Assembly: GCF_030013205.1 (NCBI RefSeq)
Contig: NZ_CP122648.1
Origin: Escherichia coli
GTDB taxonomy: Bacteria; Pseudomonadota; Gammaproteobacteria; Enterobacterales; Enterobacteriaceae
Reading direction: 5' to 3' (one strand)
DNA length: 64,000 nucleotides
The translations under genes and the position numbers were made by a program. Shown piece after piece: positions 15,345 to 37,917 of this stretch (its first letter is position 1; every line of letters begins with the position of its first letter). The notes under the pieces are model-generated. The model ran no database searches and had not been told where the DNA came from. It worked only from the letters and a program-made list of their open reading frames with translations.

Positions 15345-15555
15345 ATGAATATGGCAGCACCAAAGGGCAACCGATTTTGGGAGGCCCGCAGTAGTCATGG
15401 GCGAAATCCTAAATTCGAATCGCCTGAGGCGCTGTGGGCTGCTTGTTGTGAATACTTCGAGTGGGTAGAAGCTAACCCGCTATGGGAGATGAAGGCATTC
15501 TCGTATCAGGGTGAAGTGATACAAGAGCCTATCGCCAAGATGCGAGCGATGACCA
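15345..15555 (+). pseudogene. Small terminase subunit (P22 gp3-like), N-terminal about 70 codons only
   Basis: [71 protein letters not shown] matches the P22 gp3 N-terminus as I recall it; the rest of the 157-aa ORF is out-of-context read-through overlapping the next gene. Confidence 0.7.
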
Positions 15556-15657
15556 TTATCCAAACCGTATGCCTGTTGGTAGCGGTAATCAGTTGGCGAA
15601 GTGGAACGGTTGGAGTTACTTCCAGCGAAAGGAACCTTGCGATAACGGGAGCGAATA

Positions 15658-17076
15658 ATGCCGATTCAGCAACTTCCGCTCATGAAAGGTGTCGGAAAAG
15701 ACTTCCGAAACGCCGACTATATCGACTATCTGCCAGTGAATATGTTGGCTACACCCAAAGAAATCCTGAACAGCAGCGGATATCTTCGCTCATTCCCGGG
15801 CATTGCCAAACGTTCTGATGTGAACGGCGTATCGCGCGGAGTTGAGTACAACATGGCGCAGAGTGCTGTTTATCGCGTGTGTGGCGGCAAGCTGTACAAA
15901 GGAGAAAGTGAGGTCGGTGACGTCGCAGGAAGTGGTCGCGTATCAATGGCGCATGGTCGGACATCACAGGCGGTAGGCGTTAATGGTCAACTGGTCGAGT
16001 ATCGTTATGATGGCGCGGTCAAAACCGTCTCAAACTGGCCTACAGACAGCGGATTCACGCAGTATGAGTTAGGTTCTGTTCGTGACATTACGCGCTTACG
16101 TGGGCGTTATGCGTGGTCAAAAGACGGAACTGATTCATGGTTTATCACTGACCTTGAAGACGAATCGCATCCTGACCGTTACAGCGCACAATATCGTGCC
16201 GAGTCGCAGCCTGACGGCATCATCGGCATCGGAACATGGCGAGACTTCATCGTCTGCTTTGGTTCATCGACGATTGAATATTTCTCCCTGACTGGTGCAA
16301 CCACCGTTGGTGCCGCTTTGTATGTTGCACAGCCATCACTGATGGTGCAGAAAGGTATTGCTGGGACTTACTGCAAAACGCCATTCGCTGATTCTTATGC
16401 GTTCATCAGCAATCCGGCAACAGGTGCGCCGTCTGTATACATCATCGGCTCCGGTCAGGTGTCACCAATCGCCAGCGCGAGCATTGAGAAAATCCTCCGC
16501 TCCTACACTGCTGATGAACTGGCTGATGGCGTGATGGAATCGCTGCGGTTTGATGCGCATGAGTTGCTGATTATCCATCTTCCGCGCCATGTCCTCGTGT
16601 ACGACGCATCTTCAAGCGCCAATGGTCCGCAATGGTGTGTGCTGAAAACAGGCCTGTATGACCATGTGTACCGCGCTATTGACTTCATTTACGAAGGCAA
16701 TCAGATAACGTGCGGCGATAAGCTGGAGTCTGTTACCGGGAAATTGCAGTTCGATATATCTTCACAATACGAAAAACAACAAGAGCATATTTTATATTCC
16801 CCTCTAATAAAGGCAGATAACGCTTTAATAAATGACCTTGAATTAGAAACATCTGGCGGCGTGTGTGATAGAATAGATAAAATATTTATATCAGCCACTA
16901 CAGATGGAATTAGTTACGGTCGTGAGCAAATGGTCGTATTACAAAAACCATTTGTATATGAAAATCGCGTTTTATGGCGAAAGGTTGGTCGAGTTAGACG
17001 CCTCATTGGATTTAAATTCAGAGTTATTGCAAAAGGTCCTGTCACATTATCAGGCCTTTCTATTCGTGTAACATAA
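15658..17076 (+). CDS. P22 gp10-like packaged-DNA stabilization / head completion protein
   Basis: 472-aa [52 protein letters not shown]..., same length and near-identical N-terminal region as P22 gp10 from memory. Confidence 0.85.
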
Positions 17077-17097
17077 ATCGAAACTCAAGGAGTAGAT

Positions 17098-17631
17098 ATG
17101 TTAAGTGAAAACGCAAAAGATATCGAAGGATATGAAGGACTGTACGCCATCACTAATGATGGTAGAGTTTACTCGCATTCAAGAGTAAATTTGAGGGGAC
17201 GTCTTATTAAGGGTAGGTGGCTGAAGCATAATCATAACGTAAATGGATATAAGTATGTGTGTTTATATAAGGATGGCGTAAAAAAGAACATACTAATACA
17301 TAAGCTTGTTGCATCTCACTTTGTTGGTGGATTTGCTGAAGGGTTACAGGTAAATCATATAGATGGTGATAAATATAATAATAACTATCTAAATCTTGAA
17401 TGGGTTACTCCATCAGGAAACATCTCACACTCATATGGATTGGAGTCGAGAGGTAATGTAAAAGGAGAAAGGAATGGTAATTCTAAAATATCTAATGATG
17501 ATGTCATAAAGATAAAAGAAATGGTTGCCAATGGATTTCCTCAGTGTGAAGTTGCTAAATTATTTGGAATTCACAATTCAAAGGTTAGTAGAATTGTAAA
17601 TGGCAAGGCATGGAGGCATGTTAATGGCTGA
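17098..17631 (+). CDS. HNH homing endonuclease (HNH + AP2/NUMOD-like DNA-binding region)
   Basis: 177-aa ORF with [17 protein letters not shown] and HKLVASHFV...[11 protein letters not shown] (HNH) motifs; free-standing between gp10 and the tail needle gene. Confidence 0.8.
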
Positions 17632-18055
17632 TTCGAATCTCAACACCCCTGTTATTGTGCAGGCTACGCGGCTCGATACATCAATACTTCCACGCAATAT
17701 CTTCTCGCAGTCGTATCTGCTTTACGTTATCGCACAGGGCACTGATGTTGGTAACGTGGCTAACAAGGCCAACGAGGCCGGACAGGGCGCTTATGATGCA
17801 CAGGTCAGGAACGATGAGCAGGATGTGATTCTGGTCGATCATGAAGAAAGAATTCGTCAGCTCCGCATTGAAGTAGATGACCATGAAATCCGTATTGCTG
17901 CGAATACTGCGGCAATTGCAGCGCTGGATGTCAGACTAACCACGGCTGAAGGAGAAATAGTCACCTTACAGGCTGACGTCAGCGCTCTTGATGGCCGGGT
18001 TCCCGAGAAATACAAAGAGCAGAATTACAAGAAAAGGCTCTGGACAGACAGATAG
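17624..18055 (+). CDS. Tail needle protein (P22 gp26-like), N-terminal domain conserved, short divergent C-terminus
   Basis: [43 protein letters not shown]...[48 protein letters not shown] matches the gp26 N-terminal coiled coil; only 143 aa versus about 233 in P22. Confidence 0.7.
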
Positions 18056-18582
18056 CCAGAGAAAGCAATCAGTTAAAGCTCGAAGAGCTAAAACAGAAAC
18101 AGGCAGATGTTCGGCAAAAGGCTGACATAGCCCGCGCTGACAGGCAGGCCGCCGCTCAGGGTGCGGTTGATACGTTCAGCACCGCGCTTGATTCTCTCAA
18201 CGAGACAGAGCAAAGCCCCGGCCTTTCAAAAGCAGTAGGAATTCGCTCAGCGTTTCCGACAGTTCCTGGCTCTGATGCGGCTAACTTTGAAGCAAGACTC
18301 GACACCTTTAAAGCTCAAACTTTCCTCCCTATGGTGCAGTCCCTGAAGGGGATGGGGGCTCTTTCAGATGCTGAGGGTAAAAAATTATCTGATGCGGTTG
18401 GTGCTCTAAGTCCCAAAATGAGTGAAAAGGCTTTTCGTGACTCTATCGGAAAGATTCGAAATCAGCTTGAAAGCAAGTTGAGCACTGTTAAAAAACAGTT
18501 TGATTATCAGGAGCCAGTACAGAATACGCCAGGGCAACAATCTACTACTGGCAGTAACTTTTCTTCACTATGGGGTGATTAA
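17986..18582 (+). pseudogene. Start-less coiled-coil ORF fragment (possible 3' part of a tail needle or ejection gene after a deletion or frameshift)
   Basis: Frame open from 17986 with no ATG until 18331; encodes ...LKLEELKQKQADVRQKADIARADRQAAAQGAVDTFSTALDSL...; stop overlaps the start of the next gene (ATGA at 18579-18582). Confidence 0.3.
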
Positions 18583-21064: not shown

Positions 21065-21734
21065 ATGACAGACATTACAGCCAATGTGATCGTATCGATG
21101 CCTTCGCAACTCTTCACTATGGCTCGTTCTTTTAAAGCCGTAGCCAATGGCAAAATTTATATCGGTAAAATTGACACTGACCCGGTAAATCCTGAAAACC
21201 AGATTCAGGTTTATGTGGAGAACGAAGACGGTTCTCACGTTCCTGTTGCACAGCCAATCATCATTAACGCCGCTGGTTATCCTGTATATAACGGACAGAT
21301 TGCCAAGTTCGTTACTGTGCAAGGCCATTCCATGGCTGTTTATGATGCGTATGGGGCGCAGCAGTTCTATTTTCCGAATGTGCTGAAGTACAACCCTGAT
21401 CAATTACGAACAATTCTTGAAGGAAGTATTATTGATTCTTCAGGCGATGTTTTTGGCTCTCCTGTGCGTGATTTTGAATATTTTGGCGCAGTAGGTGATG
21501 GTGTTGCCGATGACACTAATGCAATTAAATCCGCGGCTGCATGGGTTACTTCTGGAAATTATCGGCAAATAACTACCAGAGAACAAAAGATATATCGCGT
21601 AACATCAACCGTTGATTTTAATTTCGCTAACGGCCGCGGTCACTCGATTCTGATGAAGAGTCCAATCCGACCTGATGCTGGAACCGGCACTGCTTTTCTC
21701 ATTCAGAATACTCGAGACTCGGTATTCAATTTGA
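21065..21734 (+). pseudogene. Tailspike gene, 5' part (P22 gp9-type head-binding domain plus start of beta-helix), interrupted by IS1
   Basis: [58 protein letters not shown]... matches the P22 tailspike N-terminal domain; the frame is cut by the IS1 end at 21735. Confidence 0.85.
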
Positions 21735-21749
21735 GGTAATGACTCCAAC

Positions 21750-22253
21750 TTACTGATAGTGTTTTATGTTCAGATAATGCCCGATGACCTTGTCATGCAG
21801 CTCCACCGATTTTGAGAACGACAGTGACTTCCGTCCCAGCCTTGCCAGATGTTGTCTCAGATTCAGGTTATGCCGCTCAATGCGCTGAGTATAACGCTTG
21901 CTGATAACGTGCAGCTTTCCCTTCAGGCGTGATTCATACAGCGGCCAGCCATCCGTCATCCATACCACGACCTCAAAGGCCGACAGCAGGCTCAGAAGAC
22001 GCTCCAGTGTGGCCAGAGTGCGTTCACCGAAGACGTGCGCCACAACCGTCCTCCGCATCCTGTCATACGCGTAAAACAGCCAGCGCTGACGTGATTTAGC
22101 ACCGACGTAGCCCCACTGTTCGTCCATTTCAGCGCAGACAATCACATCACTGCCCGGTTGTATGCGCGAGGTTACCGACTGCGGCCTGAGTTTTTTAAGT
22201 GGCGGAAAATCGTGTTGAGGCCAACGCCAATAATGCGTGCACTGGCGCGACAT
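21750..22253 (-). CDS. insB: IS1 InsB' (transposase made as an InsAB' frameshift fusion)
   Basis: 167-aa ORF ending ...[18 protein letters not shown], overlapping insA in the -1 frame. Confidence 0.95.
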
Positions 22254-22447
22254 CCGACGCCATTCATGGCCATATCAATGATTTTCTGGTGCGTACCGGG
22301 CTGAGAGGCGGCGTAAGTGAACTGTAGTTGCCATGTTTTACGGCAGTGAGAGCAGAGATAGCGCTGATGTCCGGCGGTGCTTTTGCCGTTACGCACCACC
22401 CCGTCAGTAGCTGAACAGGAGGGACAGCTGATAGAAACAGAAGCCAC
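22172..22447 (-). CDS. insA: IS1 InsA
   Basis: 91-aa [46 protein letters not shown]... Confidence 0.95.
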
Positions 22448-22502
22448 TGGAGCACCTCAAAAACACCATCATACACTAAATCAGTAAGTTGGCAGCATCA
22501 CC

Positions 22503-23790
22503 CAATTTGAAAGTAGATGGGGGCGGGGACTCAAATGCGGATTACTATGTTCCTGGAAGCACAAACTTCGTTGACTATAGCCAGGCAGACCCGGCAGGCG
22601 CCCAGACAGCATTTTATATCAGGGGGGTCAGAAATTCTGATATTGATGTGACTGGGCTTAAATTTGCAGGGCGAGTTCTTCGCACCAATGCGTTGGACGT
22701 TGCCGCTGGTGGGATTATCAAAACATCGTTCAATACATTGCGCATTAAGACTGGGGACCAGGGGGCCGGTGAAACTGTACGTTGTGGTCAGGCGTATTAT
22801 CTACAAGGTGATGATTCTGCATGGGGCAAGATTGATCGCGCCTGGCTTAACTGGGACAGGTTTGGCAGTGTGCATTACAAACTAGTGGATGTTACCATTG
22901 GGAATATAGAAGCTGGTTTTGCAGGTAACGGCGGGCTTCAGTTTTATGGGATAGCTACCGCCCACATTGGAACTCTTTCCGTTGGTGATGAGACATTAAC
23001 TAACACTAATATCTTGTTCGCTAACTCAACGGACGGACAAGAATGTATTGCAGTACATATAGACAGAATCTTTACTGGCTCAGGTAATATCGGGGTAGAG
23101 CTAAGGGGTTCTAATGGGGGTGGTGGTGGTAATAGACCAAACTTTGATATCAACAGCATCTACGTAATTACGTGTGCAAACAGCAATGTCATATTGAACG
23201 GAACCAATAATAGCATCATAAGGAATATTCAATCTCAGGGCGGCGCTGTTGCCGTTAGATTGCAGCGGGTTATAAGAAACCTTCATCTCACTATTAATAG
23301 CTCCTCTGAATCAGGATCTAGCATCCTCGCAGACCCAGGTTCAAACATAAATAACTTGTATGTTAATGGCAGGAGTTACGGTAATACAGGAGCAGCTACT
23401 GTAGACCTTTTAGCCGCTACTGGGGGTATGCGCTGTGTGTTTGATGGATATACCGTGCGATCTGGAATGGCAGCGTACGCCATTCCAGTAACAAACTCTG
23501 TCACCATTCAAAATGGTGAAATAGATATATCATCTGGAGGTGTTGCTTTCTCGGTTGGAGTTCCAAGGGTAAACGTAAATAACGTTGGGTTTATTACTAG
23601 GAATAGAGGGTCAGGTTTAATTTTGGCAGGAAACCAGACCATTACTATCTCTCATGGTCTTGCACAACAGCCAACAGAAATATGTGTGACGCCATTATCA
23701 ACAGCAACTGGGTTTAGAGTGCTTAATATTACAGCGACATCATTTGATGTGAGATTATCCTCTGCATTAGGTGGTTCGGATCCAGCTTAG
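22503..23790 (+). pseudogene. Tailspike gene, 3' part (receptor-binding beta-helix domain)
   Basis: Frame continues directly from the 5' part once IS1 and one TSD copy are removed (...DSVFNL|KVDGGGDSNADYY...); Gly/Asn/Thr-rich beta-helix-like repeats. Confidence 0.8.
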
Positions 23791-23828: not shown

Positions 23829-23860
23829 TATTAAGGGGGCGCGCCCCCTTAATATTTTTG
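23829..23860. terminator. Bidirectional intrinsic terminator between tailspike and the glycosylation cassette
   Basis: GC-rich palindrome AAGGGGGCGCGCCCCCTT flanked by A-run and T-run. Confidence 0.6.
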
Positions 23861-23861
23861 C

Positions 23862-24794
23862 TCACTTACCAATACTTAAGTAGAAAAGAGATTTCATCTC
23901 TCTTCTGCTTACAGTTATTGCCTGCAATATGATCCCGCACATAAATGACAGGACTGAAATAAGCATAATTGCACTTGCTGCGACTGCCGTTGGCAATCTT
24001 GGTACCAGTCCTGTTTCTGCAAACTCTTTAACGATAGGCAGGCCAAGAGATAGAGAAATAACCGCAAAAAAGCATGAAAGTATTCCGAAGAAATATATTG
24101 GTCTTTCAATTGCATAAAGCTTTATTATAGTCTTCAGGATTCTGAATCCATCTTTGTAAGTTGAAAGCTTACTTTCAGAACCATCAGGTCTGCTTCCATA
24201 ATATGTATCTACTTCACCATATTTCATACGTAATTCCAGAGCATGAATCGTCAGCTCTGTTTCAGTCTCAAATCCTCTTGACTGGCTTGGAAAAGATTTT
24301 ACATATCGTTTTGTAAAAGCTCTATATCCTGAAAGCATGTCAGTAAATTCACCTTTAAATATTGTCGTAACAGTGCCAGTTAAAACTCTGTTTCCAAACC
24401 TGTGACCAGATCGATATGTTTTTATAGACCCATCATCTTTTCTACATCCAACAACCATATCTAGGTCATCATCAATAAGTTTATCGATGAGTTTTTTTAC
24501 AGCTGCTGCCTCATAGGTATCATCGCCGTCAACCATGATGTAAATGTCAGCATCAACATCAGCAAACATTCGTCTAACAACGTTACCTTTCCCTTTTAAG
24601 TTAACGTGCTTAACTATAGCTCCAGACTGTTTTGCTACATCTCCGGTAGAGTCTGTGGAATTATTGTCAAATACGTAAATATCACCTTCCGGAAGGAACC
24701 TTCTAAAATCTGTGACGACATTAACTATAGAAAGCGCCTCATTATGGCAAGGTATTATAACTGCAACTTTAAAACCTCTGTAGTTATTCATCAC
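23862..24794 (-). CDS. GT2-family polyprenyl-phosphate glycosyltransferase (GtrB-like architecture: GT-A domain plus two C-terminal TM helices)
   Basis: 310-aa ORF with ...AVIIPCHNE... and ...MVDGDD... (DxD) motifs and a hydrophobic C-terminus; N-terminus diverges from canonical GtrB. Confidence 0.7.
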   Translation of the reverse strand: MMNNYRGFKVAVIIPCHNEALSIVNVVTDFRRFLPEGDIYVFDNNSTDSTGDVAKQSGAIVKHVNLKGKGNVVRRMFADVDADIYIMVDGDDTYEAAAVKKLIDKLIDDDLDMVVGCRKDDGSIKTYRSGHRFGNRVLTGTVTTIFKGEFTDMLSGYRAFTKRYVKSFPSQSRGFETETELTIHALELRMKYGEVDTYYGSRPDGSESKLSTYKDGFRILKTIIKLYAIERPIYFFGILSCFFAVISLSLGLPIVKEFAETGLVPRLPTAVAASAIMLISVLSFMCGIILQAITVSRREMKSLFYLSIGK

Positions 24795-24801
24795 ATAACC
24801 T

Positions 24802-26160
24802 CTACATGTAATATCTAGTAATAATGGAAGGAATCATTGCGTTCAACGAAACAATTAACATTATAACTGTGATAATGTACGCAATCATTTGTTTTTTCTT
24901 GTTCTGGCTCATTAACAAGAAGGCGGAAATAATTACAGGAATCACAAAGTATCGCCCCTGAATACCAATTATAACATCGGTAGGAAATTTTGAATATTGC
25001 ACAAGTAATGCGCAAAAAATCAATGCTGCTGACCCAAGTGACACTATAGCCACTGATAAGGAAAAGAATATATGTTTTTTGATTTCCGAATAAGAAATAG
25101 ATAATGATATTAATGCAACTATTACTACAAAAGAAACAATATAAAGATAGGTTGGCATCCATATGTCTAGCCACCCCAACTTCCCTACAAAACTCTTGAA
25201 GTAGAATGAACTGCGACCGTAATCAGAAATGGTATTGTAAATTATACTTAAAATTTCAAATGGATGTTTTAAGTAATATGCTATAACCTCGCCTTGACTT
25301 ATTCCAGGGTGGTTTACCCCTCCATCCACGGTTATTGATATTGTTAATCCTATCCATCCTAGAGATAGCACTGCAGCAAAAAATGGAGGTAACAATCTTA
25401 TTTTTGATTGTGAATAATATGCCGCAATGAATGGTAAAATCAACACTGGTATAAGGTTAGCCCTGCTTGAAACTAGAATAAATGCAATAAATGAAATAAA
25501 TATTAAGCAGGTGTCTCCAATCTCCTTTTTCATTGCCCCTCTTGCAAGTAAGCACATCATAAGAACAGACAATGATGTTGTTATACCATCTATAGTTGTT
25601 GCAATGAACTGAAAAAGCATCATCGGCATGACCATAACACATAAAGCAAGTGCTGGTATTCTATATATGCTATTGGCATATATAATGATTGAGATGCAAG
25701 TTATAAATGCCAGAAATCGCGATATTTTATAAGTGTCTAGGATGGATAAATTAAAAGCTTTACCAAACATAATCCCTATTGACTGAGGGATGTATACAGC
25801 GGGGAAGTAAAATGCTGTGTTTGGTATCTCTTTGTATACTTTGTTATCCCCCCAATTTTTCATATCAATGCCTAACATCATTGAATTGGATATTTTCCCA
25901 ACATGTCCATTATTAAATATTTCAAATGAGTCATTTAGAGACTTATCAATGTAACCACCTGACTTAAAACCATCGTTATTATTTAGGGTTATTACCCCGT
26001 TAGTAAGAAGATAAGCGCGTGAAAAATGATGTGGCTCATCAGGGCTCATAAATGGTGGAGTTACAGAACTTATCGCAATATATAAAACAAAAGAAAAGAT
26101 AAATAAAAATAATTTTTTATGTAATGATTTCATTTGGCAATCACTTATCATTAAAAACAA
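24802..26160 (-). CDS. Polytopic membrane glycosyltransferase (GT-C/GtrC-like, serotype-specific O-antigen modification candidate)
   Basis: 452-aa AT-rich multi-TM ORF between gtrA and the GT2 gene; 20-bp overlap with gtrA. Confidence 0.55.
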   Translation of the reverse strand: MFLMISDCQMKSLHKKLFLFIFSFVLYIAISSVTPPFMSPDEPHHFSRAYLLTNGVITLNNNDGFKSGGYIDKSLNDSFEIFNNGHVGKISNSMMLGIDMKNWGDNKVYKEIPNTAFYFPAVYIPQSIGIMFGKAFNLSILDTYKISRFLAFITCISIIIYANSIYRIPALALCVMVMPMMLFQFIATTIDGITTSLSVLMMCLLARGAMKKEIGDTCLIFISFIAFILVSSRANLIPVLILPFIAAYYSQSKIRLLPPFFAAVLSLGWIGLTISITVDGGVNHPGISQGEVIAYYLKHPFEILSIIYNTISDYGRSSFYFKSFVGKLGWLDIWMPTYLYIVSFVVIVALISLSISYSEIKKHIFFSLSVAIVSLGSAALIFCALLVQYSKFPTDVIIGIQGRYFVIPVIISAFLLMSQNKKKQMIAYIITVIMLIVSLNAMIPSIITRYYM

Positions 26161-26500
26161 TAAATTTTGCGTACAAGAAGCCTATAAATAAGCTTATTGC
26201 TGAAAATATAATGGCGCTAAGCATAGGTGGCGTATAAAGTATGTCTCCAACCCATCCAACGCAAGAGCTGAGTATTCCCATAAATCCCACATAGAGTAGA
26301 TATCGCATTGTTGATGTTCTTGACATAAATGTGAATCTGGCATTTGCAAAGAATGAGAAGCTTACTGCAAAGATAAAACCGGCTAAATTAGATAACGCTT
26401 GGGTTGCGTGCATTGAATAATAACAAAAAGCAAATATAACCCAATGTATGATTGTGTTGATGATGCCAATAGATGTGTACTTAGCGAACAATTTTAACAT
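26141..26500 (-). CDS. gtrA: GtrA-family flippase-like small membrane protein
   Basis: 119-aa ORF MLKLFAKYTSIGIINTIIHWVIFAFCYY...FFANARFTF... matches the GtrA family. Confidence 0.85.
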   Translation of the reverse strand: MLKLFAKYTSIGIINTIIHWVIFAFCYYSMHATQALSNLAGFIFAVSFSFFANARFTFMSRTSTMRYLLYVGFMGILSSCVGWVGDILYTPPMLSAIIFSAISLFIGFLYAKFIVFNDK

Positions 26501-26650
26501 TTTTTTGTCAACTAACTCTTAAAGGGGGGAGTCTATCACTTTAGTCTCAATCGATCGATACTTGCTGTGGTTGATGGGGCAAAACTGAGACACAAAAAGC
26601 TTTGCACTGGATTGCAAGGCTTTGTGCACTTCGATAGTGGTTAAGGTGGA

Positions 26651-27808
26651 TCACTCCACCTTTTCATCAATCCAGTCCGCCCACCACTGCATCATCTCCC
26701 GGCGCTTATCGAGATACTGAGCATGGTTGTAAATCCCGCGCACAGATCCGCCGTTGGCATGTGCCAGTTGCACTTCAATAGCATCAGCAGGCCATTCGTG
26801 CTCGTTCATAATCGTGCTGAATTCATGCCTGAATCCGTGACCGCTTTCCAGACCTTCATAGCCGATTTGTTTGATCACAAGCAGTACAGCGTTCTCGCAG
26901 ATTGGCTTCTTCTTATCGTTGCGCCCGGCAAAAACAAACTCTGATACTGGTTTAGTGATTGAGCTTAGTGTAGTGAGAAGTTCAACCACCTGGTCTGACA
27001 TCGGGACAACATGAATTTTGCGTCCCTTCATCACACTGGCGTCGATGGTGATAATCCTGTTTTCAAAATCGACGTTCTTCCATAGCATGGAACGAAGCTC
27101 TTTTGTTCTTAGGGCTGTGTAGCGTAAAACTTTGGTCGCAATGAGCGATACGATACTTCCTGAAAATGTTGCAAGTGCTTTGTTGAATGCCGGGATCTGG
27201 TCGGCAGGTAAAAACGGGAAGTTCTTCTTGCGGTATCCCTTCATGGCGTCAGCAAGGTCAGGTGCCGGGTTATATTTAGCCCTACCAGTAACAATAGCGT
27301 AACGGAAAACCTCGCCGCATCTTCTGCGTGCTTTGTTGGCTCGCTCCATTGCACCGCGATCTTCAAATCTGCGGATTACTTCCAGAAGTTGCATCGGCTC
27401 AATATCCTGAATTTCAAGGCCGCCGATGATAGGTAAAATGTCGTCATCAAACATTTTTGCAAGTTCATTTGCATAGCCTACTGACCAGACTTGCTTCTTG
27501 TGCTCGTACCATTCCTTGTAAATGGCGCTAAAGGAATTGTTGTTAGACGAAGCCTTTTTCGCCTTTACCGGATCGATGCCAACCGAGATGTCTTTCCTCG
27601 CAGTCCATGCTTTATCCCTTGCCTCTTGCAAAGTCATAAGCGGATATTTTCCGACGGTCAGGATTTTCTCCTTACCGTCAATCTTGTAGCGAAGCTGCCA
27701 TACCTTTTTCCCTGATACAGGGACATAAAGATACAGGCCATTACCATCGAGTAGGCGGTATGGTTTTTCTTTCGGCTTTGCTGCTTCAATCTGCTTAACG
27801 GTGAGCAT
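26651..27808 (-). CDS. intS: Tyrosine integrase, IntS/CP4-57 type (DUF4102 arm-binding N-domain)
   Basis: Start taken at MLTVKQIEAAKPKEKPYRLLDGNGLYLYV...; C-terminal ...HGFRHEFSTIMNE... catalytic region; adjacent to an argW-derived att copy. The track's upstream GTG start is judged less likely. Confidence 0.85.
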   Translation of the reverse strand: MLTVKQIEAAKPKEKPYRLLDGNGLYLYVPVSGKKVWQLRYKIDGKEKILTVGKYPLMTLQEARDKAWTARKDISVGIDPVKAKKASSNNNSFSAIYKEWYEHKKQVWSVGYANELAKMFDDDILPIIGGLEIQDIEPMQLLEVIRRFEDRGAMERANKARRRCGEVFRYAIVTGRAKYNPAPDLADAMKGYRKKNFPFLPADQIPAFNKALATFSGSIVSLIATKVLRYTALRTKELRSMLWKNVDFENRIITIDASVMKGRKIHVVPMSDQVVELLTTLSSITKPVSEFVFAGRNDKKKPICENAVLLVIKQIGYEGLESGHGFRHEFSTIMNEHEWPADAIEVQLAHANGGSVRGIYNHAQYLDKRREMMQWWADWIDEKVE

Positions 27809-27969: not shown

Positions 27970-27991
27970 TGGTGTCCCTGCAGAAATCATC
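27970..27991. repeat. argW-derived att copy at the junction of the two tandem islands
   Basis: TGGTGTCCCTGCAGAAATCATC versus argW TGGTGTCCCCTGCAGGAATCGA (one missing C, two mismatches). Confidence 0.7.
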
Positions 27992-28205
27992 TTAATTATT
28001 ATCATATTGATTTATATGTTATTTATTTTAGCCATCTTGTTTTTGTACCCGTTTTGTACCCGTTTTATTCTATTCCCAATTTAAACTTCGATTCTGGAAA
28101 GGTGAGTAGGGGAGGTTATCATTTTATGTATCATTGTTGTAGACACAGAATAATTACTCGCCTATCCTCACTGTATACACACCATAGATACAGGAGTTAA
28201 CCCAC

Positions 28206-28454
28206 ATGCGCACACAGGTTGTATTGCAAAAATGGGGTAACAGCATTGCCCTTCGACTAACGGGAAACCTTAAAACCGTTCCGGGTTTTTCAGTGGGTGA
28301 TATCGTCAACGTTGAAATTAGTGAAAAAGGGCTTTTTGTAGAAAAGCCTGCACGCCGTCGCCTGAGTGAAGCCGAACTACTCGCCGGGATAACGCCAGTT
28401 ACAGCGCACGCTGACGAAATTGCCACCCCATTCAATGAGGAGGTTGATTACTGA
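28206..28454 (+). CDS. MazE/PemI/ChpS-family antitoxin (AbrB/SpoVT fold)
   Basis: 82-aa ORF MRTQVVLQKWGNSIALRLTGNLKTVPGFSVGDIVNVEISEKGLFVEKP... Confidence 0.8.
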   Translation: MRTQVVLQKWGNSIALRLTGNLKTVPGFSVGDIVNVEISEKGLFVEKPARRRLSEAELLAGITPVTAHADEIATPFNEEVDY

Positions 28455-28798
28455 TGTTTGTACCTAAGCGTGGTGATATTTGCTGGCTGGATTTTGAGCC
28501 GCAGAAAGGAAAAGAGATCGGAAAGTATCGCCCGGCACTCATACTATCCCATGAGCAATATAACCGACTCACCGGGCTTGTCATATGCTGCCCCATAAGT
28601 ACGAGCATACGAAATGCTCCCACAGAAGTTCCGGTAACAAATCTGGACGCCCCCAGCGTGGTAGCAACCACACTCATTCAAACCCTTGACTGGCGTCAGC
28701 GGAAAGCGCGCTTAATCACAGAGGCAGAAGATGGGGTATTTAATGATGTGCTTGAAAGAGTCATTACTCTGATTGGTGGAGAGCATCTGCTTAAGTAA
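28454..28798 (+). CDS. MazF/PemK-family endoribonuclease toxin
   Basis: 114-aa ORF MFVPKRGDICWLDFEPQKGKEIGKYRPALILSHEQYNRLTGLVICCPISTS..., start overlapping the antitoxin stop. Confidence 0.8.
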   Translation: MFVPKRGDICWLDFEPQKGKEIGKYRPALILSHEQYNRLTGLVICCPISTSIRNAPTEVPVTNLDAPSVVATTLIQTLDWRQRKARLITEAEDGVFNDVLERVITLIGGEHLLK

Positions 28799-28841
28799 AA
28801 GGAGGGCTGAGAAGCCCTCAACGTTACCGGAAATTTCCTTG

Positions 28842-30113
28842 CTATTCTTTCCAGTCAATCCCATCCAGTAAGCACCCTGCCTCATATTGCCCCACCACCC
28901 AGTCAAGGTTACAGGACTCATAGAACGCGAGGCGATTATACTGAGGCTCGTTTTTTACCAGGCCACGAACGGAACCACGCTGCCAGTACAGACACAGATT
29001 GGCAAGAGGTGTGATCAATACAGCATTGTCCGGGAAAAATGGAACGGTCACAGCCGGGAGATTCCCCAGAACGGGATTTTTAATGATTTCCTCGTTAAGC
29101 AAAATTTCCTGATTCATCTGCGATGGATCAAGACGGTTTATCAAAGGCCATTGTTTACGGACCAGCGTATTGTGACTGCATACGGCCACAATGCCTTCCT
29201 GCCACTGTTCATCAATCATGGATTGCCAGGCATCCAGAACGAGCGCATCTATCGTATGGTGTGTACCGCGTATATTACTTTTCGGTGATGAGACAGAAAG
29301 GCCGCTGATAACCCTTCCCGCCGCTTCATTTCGAAACTTCTGCAACCAGCCCACGCCGCAATCGTCACGCCCCGGATATGTTCCGGGATCTGATACATCG
29401 GCATAGTGCGTACCGTTAAAACCAATCTGAATCAAATCCAGCCATTTCTGGCGTTCAAAAGCAGCCCGGGCGCTTCCTTCAAGACCGTTTGCGGATGCGT
29501 GAGCATCAACATTGTCGTAGTTCAGCGCAAAATCAAAATTAACCTGCTCGCAGCGGTAGCCCCTTGAAACCAGTGAATGCGCCTGTAGTGGCGAGCGGCG
29601 CTCGTGAGGTGGCGATGTACGTGCTAACGGCCCCGAAGCGTCTACCAGCACAACCTGACCTGATATATCCGTAACAGGCACGGGAGTTATTTCAGCAAGG
29701 AAATTTGCCTGCCATCCACTGGCAAGCGTTGCACTCTGGCGGGGGACGGGTTCAACTTCTGACGAATAGCGCGCAGTGTCACCGGAAAAGTGCAAATCCT
29801 TCGGATGCTTTCCGGTTATCGACTCGATAGCGCAATTGAAAACCATCTGAGACTGTTGATTTCGTTGTGATACAACAGAATCAGCAGTGCAATTATAACG
29901 CTCAATGCCGTCGTTATTACCCCCACCGCTTGCAGTATGCAGGGTGTGAAGCTCAAGCTCACGCTCCAGTTTTTGATATTCATTGTCCAGCGCGCGACGC
30001 GTCTCATCGCTTATGCTTGCTGTGTTTGCTTTCAGGCGATTCCGGGACATTAATCCCCTGAGTCGGCTCACTATATCAGCGCCGTGCAAATGTGGAGTAT
30101 TCAGACCGCCCAT
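28842..30113 (-). CDS. P2 gpN-family major capsid protein homologue with divergent N-terminal region
   Basis: Start taken at internal ATG 30113 (TAATG overlap with the upstream gene stop). C-terminal two-thirds align by eye with P2 gpN (...YRCEQVNFDF..., ...GWLQKFRNEAAGRV..., ...GNLPAVTVPFFPDNAVLITPLANL..., ...YESCNLDWVVGQYEAGCL...). Confidence 0.7.
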   Translation of the reverse strand: MGGLNTPHLHGADIVSRLRGLMSRNRLKANTASISDETRRALDNEYQKLERELELHTLHTASGGGNNDGIERYNCTADSVVSQRNQQSQMVFNCAIESITGKHPKDLHFSGDTARYSSEVEPVPRQSATLASGWQANFLAEITPVPVTDISGQVVLVDASGPLARTSPPHERRSPLQAHSLVSRGYRCEQVNFDFALNYDNVDAHASANGLEGSARAAFERQKWLDLIQIGFNGTHYADVSDPGTYPGRDDCGVGWLQKFRNEAAGRVISGLSVSSPKSNIRGTHHTIDALVLDAWQSMIDEQWQEGIVAVCSHNTLVRKQWPLINRLDPSQMNQEILLNEEIIKNPVLGNLPAVTVPFFPDNAVLITPLANLCLYWQRGSVRGLVKNEPQYNRLAFYESCNLDWVVGQYEAGCLLDGIDWKE

Positions 30114-30823
30114 TACTGCCACCCCCGGCAGAGTTCTCTGCCCTCCGCAAGGTCGCGCATTTTTTCTGGATTCTGTCGCGCCGCGCTCCATTGTACAGGT
30201 GAAGGGGCGCTCCTGATTGCGCAGCTTACTGAATCCGGGAGTTTCTCCGGGCAATAACGCAGCGGGCTGGAGGTGTCGCTTTCGGTATCGTTAATCCGGC
30301 CGCGAATCATCCCGACACTTTCAGCAGTATCTGCCGCTTTCAGTGTTTCGCATATTTTCTTTTCTGCGTTATACAGCGGCTGGCCAAGTAGCTCACATAA
30401 ACCACGAATCAATAACAGAACAGGGGTCAGCTCGTTAATCAGTTCGGGAAGTGCTTTTGCAAATATCTCTGCCCGCAACTTATTATCAATGCTTTCGTAA
30501 GCACAACCAGCCTCTGCCGCGTTATAACGACACTCCAGTAGCCTGATGCGCGCTTCATCATGCAATACCCGCAGACGCTCAAGATTTTCTCGCGCCACAC
30601 CCGCCTGAATGGATAATTTCGCGGAGGCTTCCGTTTTTACGCCCAGCGCAGACAGGATTGAGTTCTGCCAGTCACGATCGAGAGATTCCAGCTCCCCTTT
30701 CGTCTGTTCGATAGTCGCTTCCAGATTGGTGATTAATGATTCCTGTTCACTGAGTTTTGCCATGGCTGTATCAAACTGTGCTTTACATACCTGATGTTCG
30801 GCGCTTGCCTGAGTTATATCCAT
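30113..30823 (-). CDS. Coiled-coil protein coupled to the capsid homologue (candidate scaffold, Sid or Psu-like morphogenetic factor)
   Basis: 236-aa helical ORF immediately upstream of and overlapping the capsid gene start; assignment is positional. Confidence 0.4.
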   Translation of the reverse strand: MDITQASAEHQVCKAQFDTAMAKLSEQESLITNLEATIEQTKGELESLDRDWQNSILSALGVKTEASAKLSIQAGVARENLERLRVLHDEARIRLLECRYNAAEAGCAYESIDNKLRAEIFAKALPELINELTPVLLLIRGLCELLGQPLYNAEKKICETLKAADTAESVGMIRGRINDTESDTSSPLRYCPEKLPDSVSCAIRSAPSPVQWSAARQNPEKMRDLAEGRELCRGWQ

Positions 30824-30873
30824 TATTTGCTCCTGTAATACATTTTTTTACTTACGCCGATTTTTTCCATATT

Positions 30874-30934
30874 GCGTAATACATTCCAGCCGATTTTGTT
30901 CTCGTAATACGCTCACAATACTGTTGTATTACGC
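30874..30934. promoter_or_regulatory. Three palindromic operator-like sites GCGTA(A/T)TACGC in the divergent promoter region
   Basis: Sites at 30874-30882, 30903-30912 and 30926-30934 between the coiled-coil gene start (30823) and the RHH gene start (30989); further copies at 31014-31024, 31545-31555 and 31906-31913. Confidence 0.55.
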
Positions 30935-30988
30935 TTTCTTATATCGCGGGTGTTAAATCCCGGCATAAACAATCAGGGAGGCAACACG

Positions 30989-31222
30989 ATGAAAAAACAA
31001 AAGAAAATGCGATGCGTATTACGCTGTATTCGTATCCCGCACGAAATCGACCATAAAATAAATCAGATATGTGAGGACAGAGAGATGAACTACTCCCAGT
31101 GCGTCAGAATGTTTATCAGTCAGGGAATTAAGGCCGGGGAAAAGCAGGAAGAAGACCACAACGGGCGCAATGTAGCGGGGGATGTGTGGGCCTGGGCAAA
31201 TGACCAGAACCACACGACGTAA
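30989..31222 (+). CDS. Small ribbon-helix-helix-like putative transcriptional regulator
   Basis: 77-aa product MKKQKKMRCVLRCIRIPHEIDHKINQICEDREMNYSQCVRMFISQGIKAG...; GGGAGG RBS 8 nt upstream; divergent from the capsid operon. Confidence 0.45.
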   Translation: MKKQKKMRCVLRCIRIPHEIDHKINQICEDREMNYSQCVRMFISQGIKAGEKQEEDHNGRNVAGDVWAWANDQNHTT

Positions 31223-31272
31223 TACAGAAATAACGCAGCCGGTCACACTCGCTGGCTGTGTTATACAAATCA

Positions 31273-31455
31273 CTATGAAGTTTTCGACTTCCTGCGCTTA
31301 GTAATGCGTACAAACGACTCAAGCGTACAAAAACAAGCCCCACACTCAATATTGTTGCACTGGTAATACGTTCTGTAGATGTTTTGTTCGTGTTCTTCCA
31401 ACGAACGACCACGGGTGCGAGCTGAAGCGCCACAGGCCGGGCAAGGGAAAGACAT
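31273..31455 (-). CDS. Ogr/Delta-family zinc-finger late-gene transcriptional activator
   Basis: 60-aa ORF MSFPCPACGASARTRGRSLEEHEQNIYRTYYQCNNIECGACFCTLESF... with the CPxC...RT.R...YxQCxNxxCxxxFxTxES pattern of P2 Ogr. Confidence 0.8.
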   Translation of the reverse strand: MSFPCPACGASARTRGRSLEEHEQNIYRTYYQCNNIECGACFCTLESFVRITKRRKSKTS

Positions 31456-31817
31456 ATCGCGCTCCTCTTACTGGCGTGAAATTTAACCTATTATATCTTC
31501 CGTTGCCTCCTCTGGCTGTATCAAATAAATCCGCGATGGTCGCTGCGTATTACGCGCAGACACACCGTTCCCATGCTCACTCCTCACATTCCCCGTATCA
31601 ATTCTCTCTTGCCGTAAGAACGGCTCTGGCTGGCGATAAAACTAACCCGGTCAGGCATTCCCGCAGTCTTTAGCGAAAGATGTAATTTACCCCCTGAAAC
31701 GCGGGCTGTTCCCCCGTCACCTGCGCGCGAAAAACTCACCGTTTTTTGTGCACGCACGAAATCGCCCTCCGGGCGCGCCAGTACCGGGCCGGATGGGCAA
31801 AAAGTTACTCTAAAAAA

Positions 31818-31845
31818 TTGTGCAAATTTGTGCACTTTTGTGCAG
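31818..31845. promoter_or_regulatory. Three direct TTGTGCA repeats with 10-bp phasing (operator-like)
   Basis: TTGTGCAAATTTGTGCACTTTTGTGCAG; a fourth TTGTGCAC at 31746-31753. Confidence 0.45.
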
Positions 31846-32059
31846 ATGAACAACAGCGTCAAAAAGAGTGCTTTTGAGAGATTTTTTATGGCAACTGCGC
31901 CGCGTGTATTACGTTTTTACCATCCCCGCCGCGCATGTACATACTTCATTTTTCTGCCAAACAACAGGGCAACTCCCCGTGACTGACAGCCCCAAAAAAT
32001 CAATGATTAATGTTGCGTCTTTGTTAGAGGTCAGATCAGTTGTTTTGGGACTCTGCCTC

Positions 32060-32383
32060 AAAATCCGGTAGGGGGTGCGGAAACGGGTTACAAAGGTTAC
32101 ACCCCCCTAAAACACACTATAATCATATGATTTTAAAACATATTTCTTGTAACCTTTTTGAGGTTACAGAAGGTTACACGAGGTTACAGCTCTCAAAAAC
32201 AGATTAATTATCAATTAATTATAAATTTAACCTGTAACCAACAGTAACCACTACATAAAGGTTACATGTAACCCTGTTGTAACCCGTTTGTAACCTTTTA
32301 AATTTATTATAATATATTGATATATAATACGTTTTTCTGTTTGTAACCTTTGTAACCCGTTTCCGCACCCCCCCCCGGATTTT
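32060..32383. repeat. Block of about 14 GGTTACA/TGTAACC repeats flanked by near-perfect inverted repeats of about 40 bp (candidate attP-like or origin region)
   Basis: Left arm AAAATCCGGTAGGGGGTGCGGAAACGGGTTACAAAGGTTACA (32060-32101) is the reverse complement of the right arm (about 32339-32383); AT-rich core with both-orientation GTAACC repeats. Confidence 0.6.
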
Positions 32384-32628
32384 AGCGCGACCCTTTAAAA
32401 TGTTAATTAAACTCACTAACTCTGTATCACTCTCATTAACTCTCTATGATTGAAATGTATCTCACTGCTGTTTAACTCTTTCTGATAATCAAGAAAGGAG
32501 AGCAAAAAACTGATGGCGCTACCGCTGCAATATGGCCACCATCGCATTGCTGTTACCGTTGGCTTTGGCCAACAAAAAAGGCCAGTGGAAAACTGACCTC
32601 TTTTGCTGTGAATGTAGTGTTCTGCGGG

Positions 32629-33630
32629 TTACTCTACTGGCTCTTTTTGTTCAGTGAATGCCATGTTAGCTATCGGGTTAAACCTCATGGCATCCGCCAG
32701 ATAGTCGGGGGAAAAATGCGCATAAGTCATCGTTTGCTGGATAGTCGCATGTCCAAGAATCCGTTGTAATGTAACGATATTCCCACCGTTAATCATAAAG
32801 TGTGTGGCAAATGTATGACGCATGACATGCGTAGCCTGCCCCTTCGGTAAATCCGGCTTCACCTCCTGAAGGATCTCCCGGAACTTCAGATAATCAACCT
32901 GATACAACAACCCCGTCCGGCGGGTCTTAATCAGCGGCACGACCGAATCAGCCACAGGAACCGAACGGGATTTTCCGTTTTTGGTGTTAAAGAACGTCAC
33001 CCGGTTGCCAATGATGTGCTCTCCACGTAGTTCCGATGCTTCACTCCATCGGGCACCAGTAGAAAGACACAGAATGGCAACACGACGCGCATCACCCTCC
33101 AGTCGCTCAAGAAGCCGCTCAATCTCATCATCAGAAAGAAAGGCCATCTCTGTATTCTGAATTTTTAGCTTGCGTATACCGCGTACAGGGTTCGGGTTGT
33201 GAAAGACCTCAGCTTCAATCAGCACCGTGAACATGGTAGACAGAACGCACAAGTCACGATTAATGCTGGATGGCATTAAGCCGGCCTGTAATTTCTCTGA
33301 CCGATACTCAAGCATAAATTTTTGCGTCATCTGGCTGGCACGCGGATCTCCCATTTCACGAATCACTTTCTCCATCCGGATCCTGTAGGTATCACCGTAA
33401 GCCTGGTTACGGCCATCAAGCATCCACCATATATCAAGCAGCTCTGATAATCTCCGTCGATCAGCAGGTTTAGCCAGCCATGGGTTGTTATGGAAATTCT
33501 GTAAAATATGTTCTTTGAAGGCCTCCGCACTCCCTTTCCTGACAAAAATTTTACGTATCCGTTTGCCGTACGCCCCTTGGGGCCTGATATCGAGCAGCCA
33601 TCGCCCATCATCCATCTTTCTGATCGACAT
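32629..33630 (-). CDS. P2-type tyrosine integrase
   Basis: 333-aa ORF MSIRKMDDGRWLLDIRPQGAYGKRIRKIF...LSELLDIWW...INRDLCVLSTMFTVLIEAE...ILCLSTGARWSEA...GQATHVMRHTFATHFMINGGNIVTLQRILGHATIQQTMTYAHF matches P2 Int in length and motifs. Confidence 0.8.
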   Translation of the reverse strand: MSIRKMDDGRWLLDIRPQGAYGKRIRKIFVRKGSAEAFKEHILQNFHNNPWLAKPADRRRLSELLDIWWMLDGRNQAYGDTYRIRMEKVIREMGDPRASQMTQKFMLEYRSEKLQAGLMPSSINRDLCVLSTMFTVLIEAEVFHNPNPVRGIRKLKIQNTEMAFLSDDEIERLLERLEGDARRVAILCLSTGARWSEASELRGEHIIGNRVTFFNTKNGKSRSVPVADSVVPLIKTRRTGLLYQVDYLKFREILQEVKPDLPKGQATHVMRHTFATHFMINGGNIVTLQRILGHATIQQTMTYAHFSPDYLADAMRFNPIANMAFTEQKEPVE

Positions 33631-33632
33631 AC

Positions 33633-36302: not shown

Positions 36303-36314
36303 ATATAAATCCCC

Positions 36315-36344
36315 CCCACTGCACCTTTTGCAGTGGGTTTTTTA
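36315..36344. terminator. Hairpin plus T-run between the primase gene start and the upstream small ORF
   Basis: CCCACTGCA-CCTTTT-TGCAGTGGG followed by TTTTTTA; reads as a canonical terminator on the + strand. Confidence 0.4.
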
Positions 36345-36348
36345 TTAA

Positions 36349-36648
36349 TTACTCGTTGCTTATTGCTTTGGCAATCCCGGCGGTTTCGGCGCTATGCCAT
36401 GAAAAAATTCCGCCGGATGAATGCATACCAGATTTTATTGATTGTAATTCCCTATAAATAATGTTAGACAGAGATGCAATTTCTTCATTTATAATTTCTG
36501 CTGATGCTCCGCCATTTTTATCGTCAAAAACCACAGATATTAAACTGACGAGATTAATCACATCTGTGAGATCTTCCTTTGCACTTTCTGTAAAAAAGCC
36601 AACATATTCTCTATCTAAAAAATTTTCGCTATTCTGACGTTTAGACAT
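36349..36648 (-). CDS. Hypothetical protein (AT-rich, island-specific)
   Basis: 99-aa ORF, first of a run of small co-oriented genes upstream of the primase gene; no family recognised. Confidence 0.4.
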   Translation of the reverse strand: MSKRQNSENFLDREYVGFFTESAKEDLTDVINLVSLISVVFDDKNGGASAEIINEEIASLSNIIYRELQSIKSGMHSSGGIFSWHSAETAGIAKAISNE

Positions 36649-36715
36649 AAAAACTCCCCGACCCGTTAAGGCCGAAATATAAATTTAATTCAGTTATCAG
36701 TTGGTAATTCGGGAA

Positions 36716-36934
36716 TCAGGCGGAAAGCTGCGTCACCTTCAACGCCCTGAAATGTGTCATTCCCAGCTCTTCCAGCCCTTCGGCTGCGCGGCGTATGGCT
36801 TCGCCCGGTCCCGTTCCGTATACCGTTGCATGTGCATGTTTGGTTAACCCACGTTTATTAACGGCATAACCCAACACAAAGAAACGTTTTTCACCACTGC
36901 CATTATTTTTACGGGATGTTGAACGGGTTTTCAT
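36716..36934 (-). CDS. Hypothetical small protein
   Basis: 72-aa ORF; start overlaps the stop of the upstream gene (4-nt overlap). Confidence 0.35.
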   Translation of the reverse strand: MKTRSTSRKNNGSGEKRFFVLGYAVNKRGLTKHAHATVYGTGPGEAIRRAAEGLEELGMTHFRALKVTQLSA

Positions 36935-37119
36935 TTCTTCACCTTTACCACTGATGCTGTGAGTTCTTCTTCTGGCAACTGATATTTCGGCGCAATTTCT
37001 TCCGTATACCTGATAGCGTCCCTTGCCGCTTTTCCTTTTGATTTATATTTATATGTGGTCCGGTAGTTTTCTTCCTCTCCTGTTACCACATTACGCAATT
37101 TAATATGAATCTCGTACAT
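36931..37119 (-). CDS. Hypothetical small protein
   Basis: Start taken at MYEIHIKLRNVVTGEEENYRTTYKYKSKGKAARDAIRYTEE...; the track ORF extends 10 codons further upstream. Confidence 0.35.
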   Translation of the reverse strand: MYEIHIKLRNVVTGEEENYRTTYKYKSKGKAARDAIRYTEEIAPKYQLPEEELTASVVKVKK

Positions 37120-37121
37120 CG

Positions 37122-37304
37122 TTACCCCTCCATGATTTTTACTGCGCATTTGTGGGTTAATCGCCCCTGTTCATTCGTGCGGCTGTACTCCATGCGGCTG
37201 GCAGCACGCAGGGCATCATCACAGGTCTGATATTCCCTGACATGAAAAAACTGACGAACGTCGCCGCTCTGGCAGTTAATCAGGGTGATAAGGAGCTTAA
37301 ACAT
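37122..37304 (-). CDS. Hypothetical small protein
   Basis: Start taken at MFKLLITLINCQSGDVRQFFHVREYQTCDDALRAASRMEY...; the longer track ORF overlaps the upstream gene. Confidence 0.3.
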   Translation of the reverse strand: MFKLLITLINCQSGDVRQFFHVREYQTCDDALRAASRMEYSRTNEQGRLTHKCAVKIMEG

Positions 37305-37824: not shown

Positions 37825-37885
37825 TTCTGCCTATTATTTCTTATTGTTGGTTTCAGGTGCACTAAATGCACATCCTTGACTGGTT

Positions 37886-37917
37886 GGCTCGCTAGCTTTA
37901 GCGAGCTTCTTTTTTGC
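37886..37917 (+). terminator. Plus-strand intrinsic terminator-like hairpin with no annotated plus-strand gene upstream
   Basis: GCTCGCTA-GCTT-TAGCGAGC followed by TTCTTTTTTG; a second hairpin GGTGCACTAAATGCACATCC lies about 20 nt upstream. Confidence 0.4.

Follow-up and report, generated by a model that had tools for sequence, protein, structure and literature searches.

A prophage-borne GtrA-DUF2142-GT2 cassette in swine Escherichia coli O139 predicted to encode a three-component periplasmic glycosylation system

The stretch of Escherichia coli DNA analyzed here (64,000 nucleotides of contig NZ_CP122648.1, assembly GCF_030013205.1; hereafter the window) carries three consecutive, uninterrupted open reading frames (ORFs) on the minus strand between positions 23862 and 26500. 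The ORF list and family profiles agree with a preliminary description of this DNA on the gene order, in which a GtrA-family gene is followed by a gene for a polytopic membrane protein and then by a glycosyltransferase family 2 (GT2) gene, and on the integrity of the trio, as no frameshift was found in any of the three (3/3). These genes and their immediate surroundings are listed in Table 1. We propose that the cassette is probably a three-component periplasmic glycosylation operon, the lysogenic-conversion module of a degraded P22-like prophage, with the O139 O-antigen as its most likely acceptor.

Table 1. The GtrA-DUF2142-GT2 cassette and the features next to it (positions in the window)
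Feature	Position	Strand	Description
gtrA	26141..26500	-	119 aa; small membrane protein of the GtrA family, presumed flippase of undecaprenyl-phosphate-sugar
DUF2142-family polytopic membrane protein	24802..26133	-	443 aa with the conserved ATG as start; predicted GT-C glycosyltransferase, type-specific "GtrC" role
GT2 polyprenyl-phosphate glycosyltransferase	23862..24791	-	309 aa; RfbJ/AglJ-like subfamily, presumed undecaprenyl-phosphate-sugar synthase
intS-gtrA intergenic region	26501..26650	-	probable promoter/regulatory region of the cassette
GC-rich hairpin	23833..23849	.	between the convergent GT2 and tailspike genes; likely bidirectional terminator, operon 3' end
intS, prophage integrase	26651..27808	-	directly upstream, same strand as the cassette; RefSeq "prophage integrase IntS"

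An overlap of 20 bp between gtrA and the membrane protein gene had been reported as well, but it arises only when the longest ORF is taken, starting from TTG 26160. Because RefSeq and the close homologues begin at a conserved ATG, the overlap is an artefact of ORF calling; this start (MKSL..., ATG at 26133) is shared by RefSeq and every close homologue, and it leaves a gap of 7 nt after the gtrA stop codon. The longest-ORF alternatives would be 452 aa for the membrane protein (to 26160) and 310 aa for the GT2 protein (to 24794). With the conserved starts the spacings inside the cassette are 7 and 10 nt, and a Shine-Dalgarno sequence, GAGG, precedes the GT2 gene. The AT-richness noted earlier is evident in all three genes (GC 0.35, 0.33, and 0.37, compared with 0.466 for the whole window), and in a 500-nt profile the composition falls to 0.33-0.37 GC exactly across 24000-26499. 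Downstream, a terminator scan detected the hairpin AGGGGGCGCGCCCCCTT, followed by a T-run on both strands, which stands between the stop codon of GT2 and the tailspike gene, convergent to it.

The first gene product matches the "GtrA-like O-antigen conversion" profile phrog_2224 (E 2.3e-52) and Pfam GtrA_DPMS_TM (PF04138; E 2.4e-13), and it shares 64% identity with P22 GtrA. The pN/pS ratio of gtrA against the Citrobacter-like orthologue in locus L002 is ~0.18. By its sequence, this protein is a canonical GtrA.

Profile classification of the two transferases, proposed as a check in the preliminary description, assigned the membrane protein to Pfam DUF2142 and the GT2 protein to Pfam Glycos_transf_2 (E 8e-16), the latter with a poor score against phrog_841 (54 bits vs 563 bits for P22 GtrB). 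The sole match of the GT2 protein among PDB sequences was Pyrococcus DPMS (5mlz), with its DGDD aligned with the DAD motif, and its C-terminus carries two hydrophobic helices (227-245 and 262-280). In Foldseek searches an AlphaFold 2 model of the protein (predicted local distance difference test score, pLDDT, 84.4) matched ArnC, DPMS, and GtrB over the full length (E 1e-15 to 1e-12), consistent with the view that the overall architecture of GtrB is kept. Both sequence and modelled fold thus point to a polyprenyl-phosphate glycosyltransferase. Divergence from GtrB, previously located at the N-terminus, is real but spans the whole length of the protein; BLASTP with P22 GtrB gave 25% identity over 130 residues. 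By these comparisons, the GT2 protein is not a GtrB orthologue.

Its best-scoring curated family was TIGR04182 (AglJ, the dolichyl-phosphate (Dol-P)-hexose synthase of S-layer N-glycosylation), at 207.5 bits, below the curated cut-off of 325 bits. The protein falls within an RfbJ/AglJ-like subfamily that is widespread (at least 8,000 matches at E <1e-20), and no described function for the RfbJ-like synthases was found in the searchable literature. Clues to the donor sugar from NCBIfam and PDB (AglJ, Dol-P-hexose, PpgS, and DPMS) were all weak or below cut-off, and the genomic context of GT2 relatives gave nothing decisive on this point. In the phage collection the GT2 protein matched only "Listeria phage" records, at 46% identity, which look like Firmicute chromosomal DNA and were not used to deduce the sugar. 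One short phage-collection record (OR847138.1, "Listeria phage LM 4-11-1"), marked UNVERIFIED_ORG and probably not phage, has a stand-alone GT2 gene amid genes for a universal stress protein, a thioredoxin-like protein, an M42 peptidase, and a dipeptidase.

The membrane protein matches Pfam DUF2142 (PF09913) over its full length (E 4.1e-42; model positions 1-392 of 395). It has no match in PHROG, NCBIfam, or PDB sequences, no similarity to P22 GtrC, and zero tblastn matches among 50,697 phage records; a word-indexed search returned few close relatives (32 at E <1e-5). An AlphaFold model with 27 homologues as input was confident (pLDDT 91.9; predicted template modelling score, pTM, 0.92), and its structural neighbours include ArnT as a strong match, with Pmt4 and Pmt1/2 among the best. 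The protein is thereby confidently modelled as a GT-C glycosyltransferase. Residues P26, D32, E33, and H36, located right after the first helix, are invariant in homologues down to ~21% identity, as are Y114, D182, W260, and QGRY392-395. An acidic motif is expected in the first extracytoplasmic loop of GT-C enzymes, and the invariant PDE..H motif of the DUF2142 protein sits after the first transmembrane helix; the protein thus has both the GT-C fold and the acidic loop motif, the pairing looked for in three-component systems generally. The conserved residues presumably have a catalytic role. No characterized Gram-negative DUF2142 enzyme was found in the searchable literature, in which the papers on DUF2142 do not concern Gram-negative O-antigens.

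The gene order had been described as non-canonical, and it does differ from gtrA-gtrB-gtrC; no well-characterized Gtr family with the same order was found. It is, however, no peculiarity of this locus, since the arrangement GtrA, membrane protein, GT2 (A-C-B) is the operon layout conserved in this DUF2142/RfbJ-like subfamily and recurs across genera in five other contexts: in Cronobacter sakazakii beside Mu-like baseplate genes of a prophage, in Citrobacter amalonaticus on an island with an integrase, in loci L002 and L003, where gtrA is present and merely uncalled, and in L021, a chromosomal locus with 38% identity. Other relatives are arranged differently. Locus L009 reads int-gtrA-GT2-DUF2142-tailspike, the canonical A-B-C order (GT2 67% and DUF2142 ~40% identical), and Buttiauxella (L008) has DUF2142-gtrA-GT2 (C-A-B) in an O-antigen cluster between wzt and gnd. 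Because A-B-C and C-A-B relatives exist, the order has no evident mechanistic meaning. In Erwinia rhapontici (L004, 3833-7335) the DUF2142 gene (48% identical) is divergent from genes for a GT2 and a 112-aa EamA-family protein, with no GtrA, which suggests that the flippase was swapped for an ArnE/F-like small transporter. In all, genes of the three families are neighbours in seven further independent contexts (Cronobacter, C. amalonaticus, L002, L021, L009, Buttiauxella, and Erwinia, the last with its different flippase). A scan of IMG/VR with a narrow DUF2142 alignment gave one locus, with a solo DUF2142 gene. This gene (L018, 4860-6320; UViG_3300031237_000265) lies on a myovirus-like viral contig between tail-fibre assembly and endolysin genes, encodes a protein 33% identical to that of the window, and has no GtrA or GT2 gene adjacent; it may be a "GtrC-only" moron using a host-made lipid-linked sugar.

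Amino-acid identity between the window and the same-order orthologues is 83-87% for GT2, 75-77% for GtrA, and 63% for DUF2142, with synonymous sites saturated and pN/pS of 0.1-0.3. These values indicate that the cassette family is under strong purifying selection, and conserved A and B components combined with a variable, type-specific C are the familiar gtr pattern. The same set of loci bears on the idea of a polymerase or ligase-like activity for the DUF2142 protein, which would then move whole lipid-linked oligosaccharides, as proposed for the lactococcal proteins WpsI and WpsJ. Papers on Lactococcus and Pseudolactococcus do predict polymerase or PSP-transferase roles for DUF2142 proteins. 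Here and in seven related loci, in contrast, DUF2142 is paired with a monosaccharide undecaprenyl-phosphate (Und-P)-sugar synthase and a GtrA flippase, its partners are not Wzx or oligosaccharide-assembly genes, and the host already has its own O139 wzy. We consider such an activity highly improbable.

Within a P22-like prophage at argW that has undergone heavy deletion, the cassette is found 150 nt downstream of intS; canonical GtrABC systems are likewise located beside the integrase or att site of a temperate phage or its remnant. In K-12 the argW site is occupied by CPS-53, with an intS-yfdG-yfdH-yfdI operon of the same layout. Only the gtrA part of the block is homologous to the yfdG-type loci of other E. 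coli (77% DNA identity), and no canonical gtrB or gtrC was found elsewhere in the window, where a tblastn search with P22 GtrB was empty. The remnant retains truncated genes for the small terminase, gp4, and a tail protein, together with an intact gp16-type DNA-transfer protein and Arc. A block upstream of gtrA (GTATCGATCGATTGAGACT..GTGATAGACT) has a conserved counterpart in the Salmonella Cotham locus L014 and a partial one in P22. In P22, four paired GATC sites upstream of gtrA mediate Dam/OxyR phase variation (PMC2909390), and the P22 upstream region has GATC at 214/227 and 278/291. This signature of four paired sites is absent from the cassette upstream region, where one GATC is located ~55 nt upstream of the gtrA ATG and another in the intS 3' end.

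The complete block was found in 17 of 5,426 complete E. coli genomes. The O139 wzy gene occurs in 19 genomes, namely the 17 cassette-positive ones and two others. In the cassette-positive strain ETEC1748 the rfb cluster is annotated with O139 wzy and wzx, and in VG12A2, which has O139 wzy and lacks the cassette, the argW site is empty, with the csc genes directly beside the tRNA-Arg gene and yfdC. From the distribution limited to 17 O139 genomes and the empty argW site of VG12A2, we conclude that the insert carrying the cassette was acquired horizontally and is restricted to a single O139 lineage.

In the pathway that we propose, the GT2 protein would transfer a sugar from its nucleotide-sugar to undecaprenyl phosphate at the cytoplasmic face, by means of a GT-A domain with the DGDD metal-binding motif and with the two C-terminal helices as an anchor. 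GtrA would then flip the Und-P-sugar to the periplasmic face, and the DUF2142 GT-C enzyme would attach this sugar at one particular position of a glycan in the periplasm via D32, E33, and H36 of the first periplasmic loop. This glycan would most likely be the O139 O-antigen. The O-antigen is the usual receptor of P22-like phages, and the phage position of the cassette, the tailspike gene beside it, and relatives found within O-antigen clusters lead us to the O-antigen as acceptor; an extra sugar is most likely added by the cassette to the surface O-antigen. With regard to the donor sugar, the acceptor, and expression, we infer rather than observe. The earlier suggestion of a different sugar or acceptor than in known Gtr systems is plausible because the synthase subfamily is distinct.

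Several points weigh against this proposal. The association of the cassette with O139 is real but confounded by clonality, as the block is 100% identical in the 17 genomes, every one of them from swine. Given the heavy decay of the prophage, the operon could be silent, and no strong match to a sigma-70 consensus was found in 26501..26650. The glycan itself raises further objections. A paper on O139 synthesis (PMC4906484) gives the O139 repeat as glucose:N-acetylglucosamine:rhamnose:galacturonic acid 1:1:4:1, with the glucose beta-D and terminal in a synthetic heptasaccharide; an inverting GT2 followed by an inverting GT-C leads to the expectation of an alpha linkage, whereas the only glucose reported for the O139 unit is beta (PMC4906484). 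No residue of the published O139 structure is obviously explained by the cassette, and the acceptor need not be the O-antigen, given that the neighbours of the GT-C model include protein O-mannosyltransferases.

The decay of the prophage is also the starting point for the view that the cassette is an inert relic, with genes that are intact only through the youth of the lineage and are not expressed or not functional. Most prophage genes are lost, IS1 interrupts the tailspike gene, the upstream region yielded no consensus promoter, and the 17/17 identical copies provide no within-lineage evidence of selection. On the other hand, none of the three ORFs is disrupted although phage genes nearby are truncated, the starts, the spacing (7 and 10 nt), and the terminator hairpin are preserved, the upstream block is conserved with Salmonella loci, and the family is under strong purifying selection. 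Moreover, what remains of a decayed prophage such as CPS-53 is typically its Gtr module. An inert cassette therefore seems unlikely to us, somewhat more so than the change of acceptor considered next.

The same machinery could act on an acceptor other than the O-antigen, such as the enterobacterial common antigen, the lipopolysaccharide core, colanic acid or capsule, or a protein of the periplasm or the outer membrane that is modified in the manner of the PMT enzymes. In line with this idea, Pmt4 and Pmt1/2 rank with the best structural matches of the DUF2142 model, Gram-positive DUF2142 proteins are proposed to act on quite different cell-wall polysaccharides, and the published O139 unit has no residue that clearly requires the cassette (PMC4906484). 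The genomic settings speak for the O-antigen instead: the cassette occupies the classic gtr position of a P22-like prophage, beside the integrase and convergent with the tailspike, the Buttiauxella relative lies within a cluster of O-antigen genes, and the O13/O129/O135 rfb cluster contains a GT2 with 65% identity. We regard a non-O-antigen acceptor as unlikely and retain the O139 O-antigen as the preferred one.

A further point in favour of the proposed glycosylation operon is that WecA leaves six linkages of the O139 unit to be made, whereas the O139 rfb cluster encodes only four glycosyltransferases, a shortfall that is at least partly due to a multifunctional rhamnosyltransferase according to a review of E. 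coli O-antigens (PMC7685785). A broader reading of the cassette is that an RfbJ/AglJ-like synthase together with a DUF2142 GT-C enzyme represents a second, hitherto unrecognized lineage of phage-borne serotype-conversion modules in Enterobacteriaceae, possibly one adding a sugar other than the canonical alpha-glucose; we put this forward as a doubtful possibility. In its extreme, low-probability version, drawn by analogy with AftB, the cassette would install the O139 beta-D-glucose via a retaining GT-C enzyme. AftB is the only cited precedent for a retaining GT-C enzyme that gives a beta product (PMC11127046). If this version were true, the cassette would help to define the O139 antigen of edema-disease E. 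coli.

Side-chain additions to the O-antigen alter serotype, phage susceptibility, and antibody recognition, and this cassette is limited to a swine O139 lineage tied to edema disease and post-weaning diarrhoea. A literature search for a link between gtr and O139 or edema disease found none. Cassette-positive and cassette-negative O139 strains form a natural pair for asking whether "O139" covers two chemically different antigens, a possibility of relevance to serotyping and vaccines. For two of the three components, the family has no characterized member from Gram-negative bacteria. A sugar assignment for the GT2 subfamily, S. flexneri rfbJ included, would annotate many loci at once.

The surroundings of the cassette contain several further elements. 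The P22-like tailspike gene (21065-23790) is split by IS1 (21750-22476) into an N-terminal head-binding part (21065-21739) and a C-terminal part (22489-23790); the latter, the receptor-binding part, has no PHROG match and may be an undescribed receptor-binding or depolymerase domain. In 15351-18582 the prophage is represented only by fragments of the small terminase, gp4, tail protein, and "acyltransferase" (18001-18582) genes, and an intact ORF with a NUMOD4 domain (17098-17631), possibly homing-endonuclease-like, lies between head-completion genes. At argW two mobile elements are arranged in tandem (27970-40714). A P4-like satellite, with an integrase (~39201-40463), a toprim primase, ogr/Delta, and a P2-family capsid gene (28842-30113), fills the space between tRNA-Arg(CCT) (40640-40714) and a degenerate copy of the argW 3' end, TGGTGTCCCTGCAGAAATC (~27970-27988), which bounds the intS prophage remnant. 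Genes for a MazE/AbrB-like antitoxin (28206-28454) and a MazF/PemK-like toxin (28454-28798) are located at the junction of both elements. PADLOC gave no meaningful match to anti-phage defence systems.

Comparison with known systems places the cassette closest in logic to canonical GtrABC of P22, epsilon34, and the Shigella flexneri Sf phages, and to yfdG-yfdH-yfdI of CPS-53. Canonical GtrABC of the P22/Shigella type adds alpha-glucose, donated by Und-P-glucose, to the O-antigen. The cassette resembles these systems in its integrase-adjacent position, an orthologous GtrA, low GC, and the three steps of synthase, flippase, and GT-C transferase. It differs in a synthase that is not a GtrB orthologue, in a GT-C protein of Pfam DUF2142, in the order A-C-B, and, relative to P22, in the lack of the four-GATC Dam/OxyR block. 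The GtrB families of Salmonella are ~90% identical to each other, and the survey that described the Salmonella gtr loci was seeded by BLASTn with P22 genes (PMC3688519); because of this seeding, an RfbJ/AglJ-like subfamily would escape it.

Two enterobacterial loci share the GT2 subfamily and have a different third component. The rfbI-rfbJ-SF2091 genes of S. flexneri and E. coli O13/O129/O135 encode a 65%-identical GT2 alongside a GtrA-family and a large membrane protein, but the third component is PF27383 (SF2091), the location is a chromosomal rfb cluster, and the order is A-B-C. At the gnd end of the O13/O129/O135 rfb cluster (L011, 4564-7725), the GtrA-like gene, the GT2, and a gene for a 589-aa SF2091-family (PF27383) membrane protein look like a complete three-component system; rfbI and rfbJ have been named downstream of wzy (PMC11813082, PMC5011829), and no described function for this trio was found in the searchable literature. 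The Salmonella Cotham locus (int-gtrA-GT2-385-aa protein, at the yfdC/argW site), an example of the P22-like prophage loci of Salmonella, shares with the cassette the site, the integrase-gtrA arrangement, the upstream block, and a 66%-identical GT2, whereas its third gene encodes an unrelated 385-aa protein with no Pfam match on record and the order is A-B-C.

More distant systems share the logic and differ in parts or substrates. In the ArnC/ArnE-ArnF/ArnT pathway, the GT2 protein finds its best structural match over the full length in ArnC and the DUF2142 model a strong one in ArnT, and the same synthase-flippase-GT-C logic applies; the flippase family, the sugar (4-amino-4-deoxy-L-arabinose, L-Ara4N), and the acceptor (lipid A) are different, and sequence similarity is undetectable. 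Gram-positive loci of the CsbB/GtcA/YfhO type and those for streptococcal and lactococcal rhamnose polysaccharides share DUF2142, a GtrA/GtcA-type flippase, and a GT2 Und-P-sugar synthase with the cassette, but their acceptors are teichoic acids or rhamnan, and the roles of DUF2142 there are only predicted. The pentofuranose system of Citrobacter youngae (ORF12-15; GT136) likewise modifies the O-antigen in the periplasm after polymerization, with a lipid-linked donor and a GT-C enzyme, and differs in a phosphoribosyl pyrophosphate (PRPP)-dependent synthase, a MATE flippase, and another GT-C family (PMC11127046).

Taken against these systems, the cassette works like GtrABC and stands apart from the canonical family in GtrB orthology, gene order, and the P22-type phase-variation signature. 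It has all the generic features of three-component glycosylation, with a membrane-anchored GT-A synthase, a transferase of GT-C fold, and conserved co-location, and it is an uncharacterized variant of a well-known system whose underlying logic is not new.

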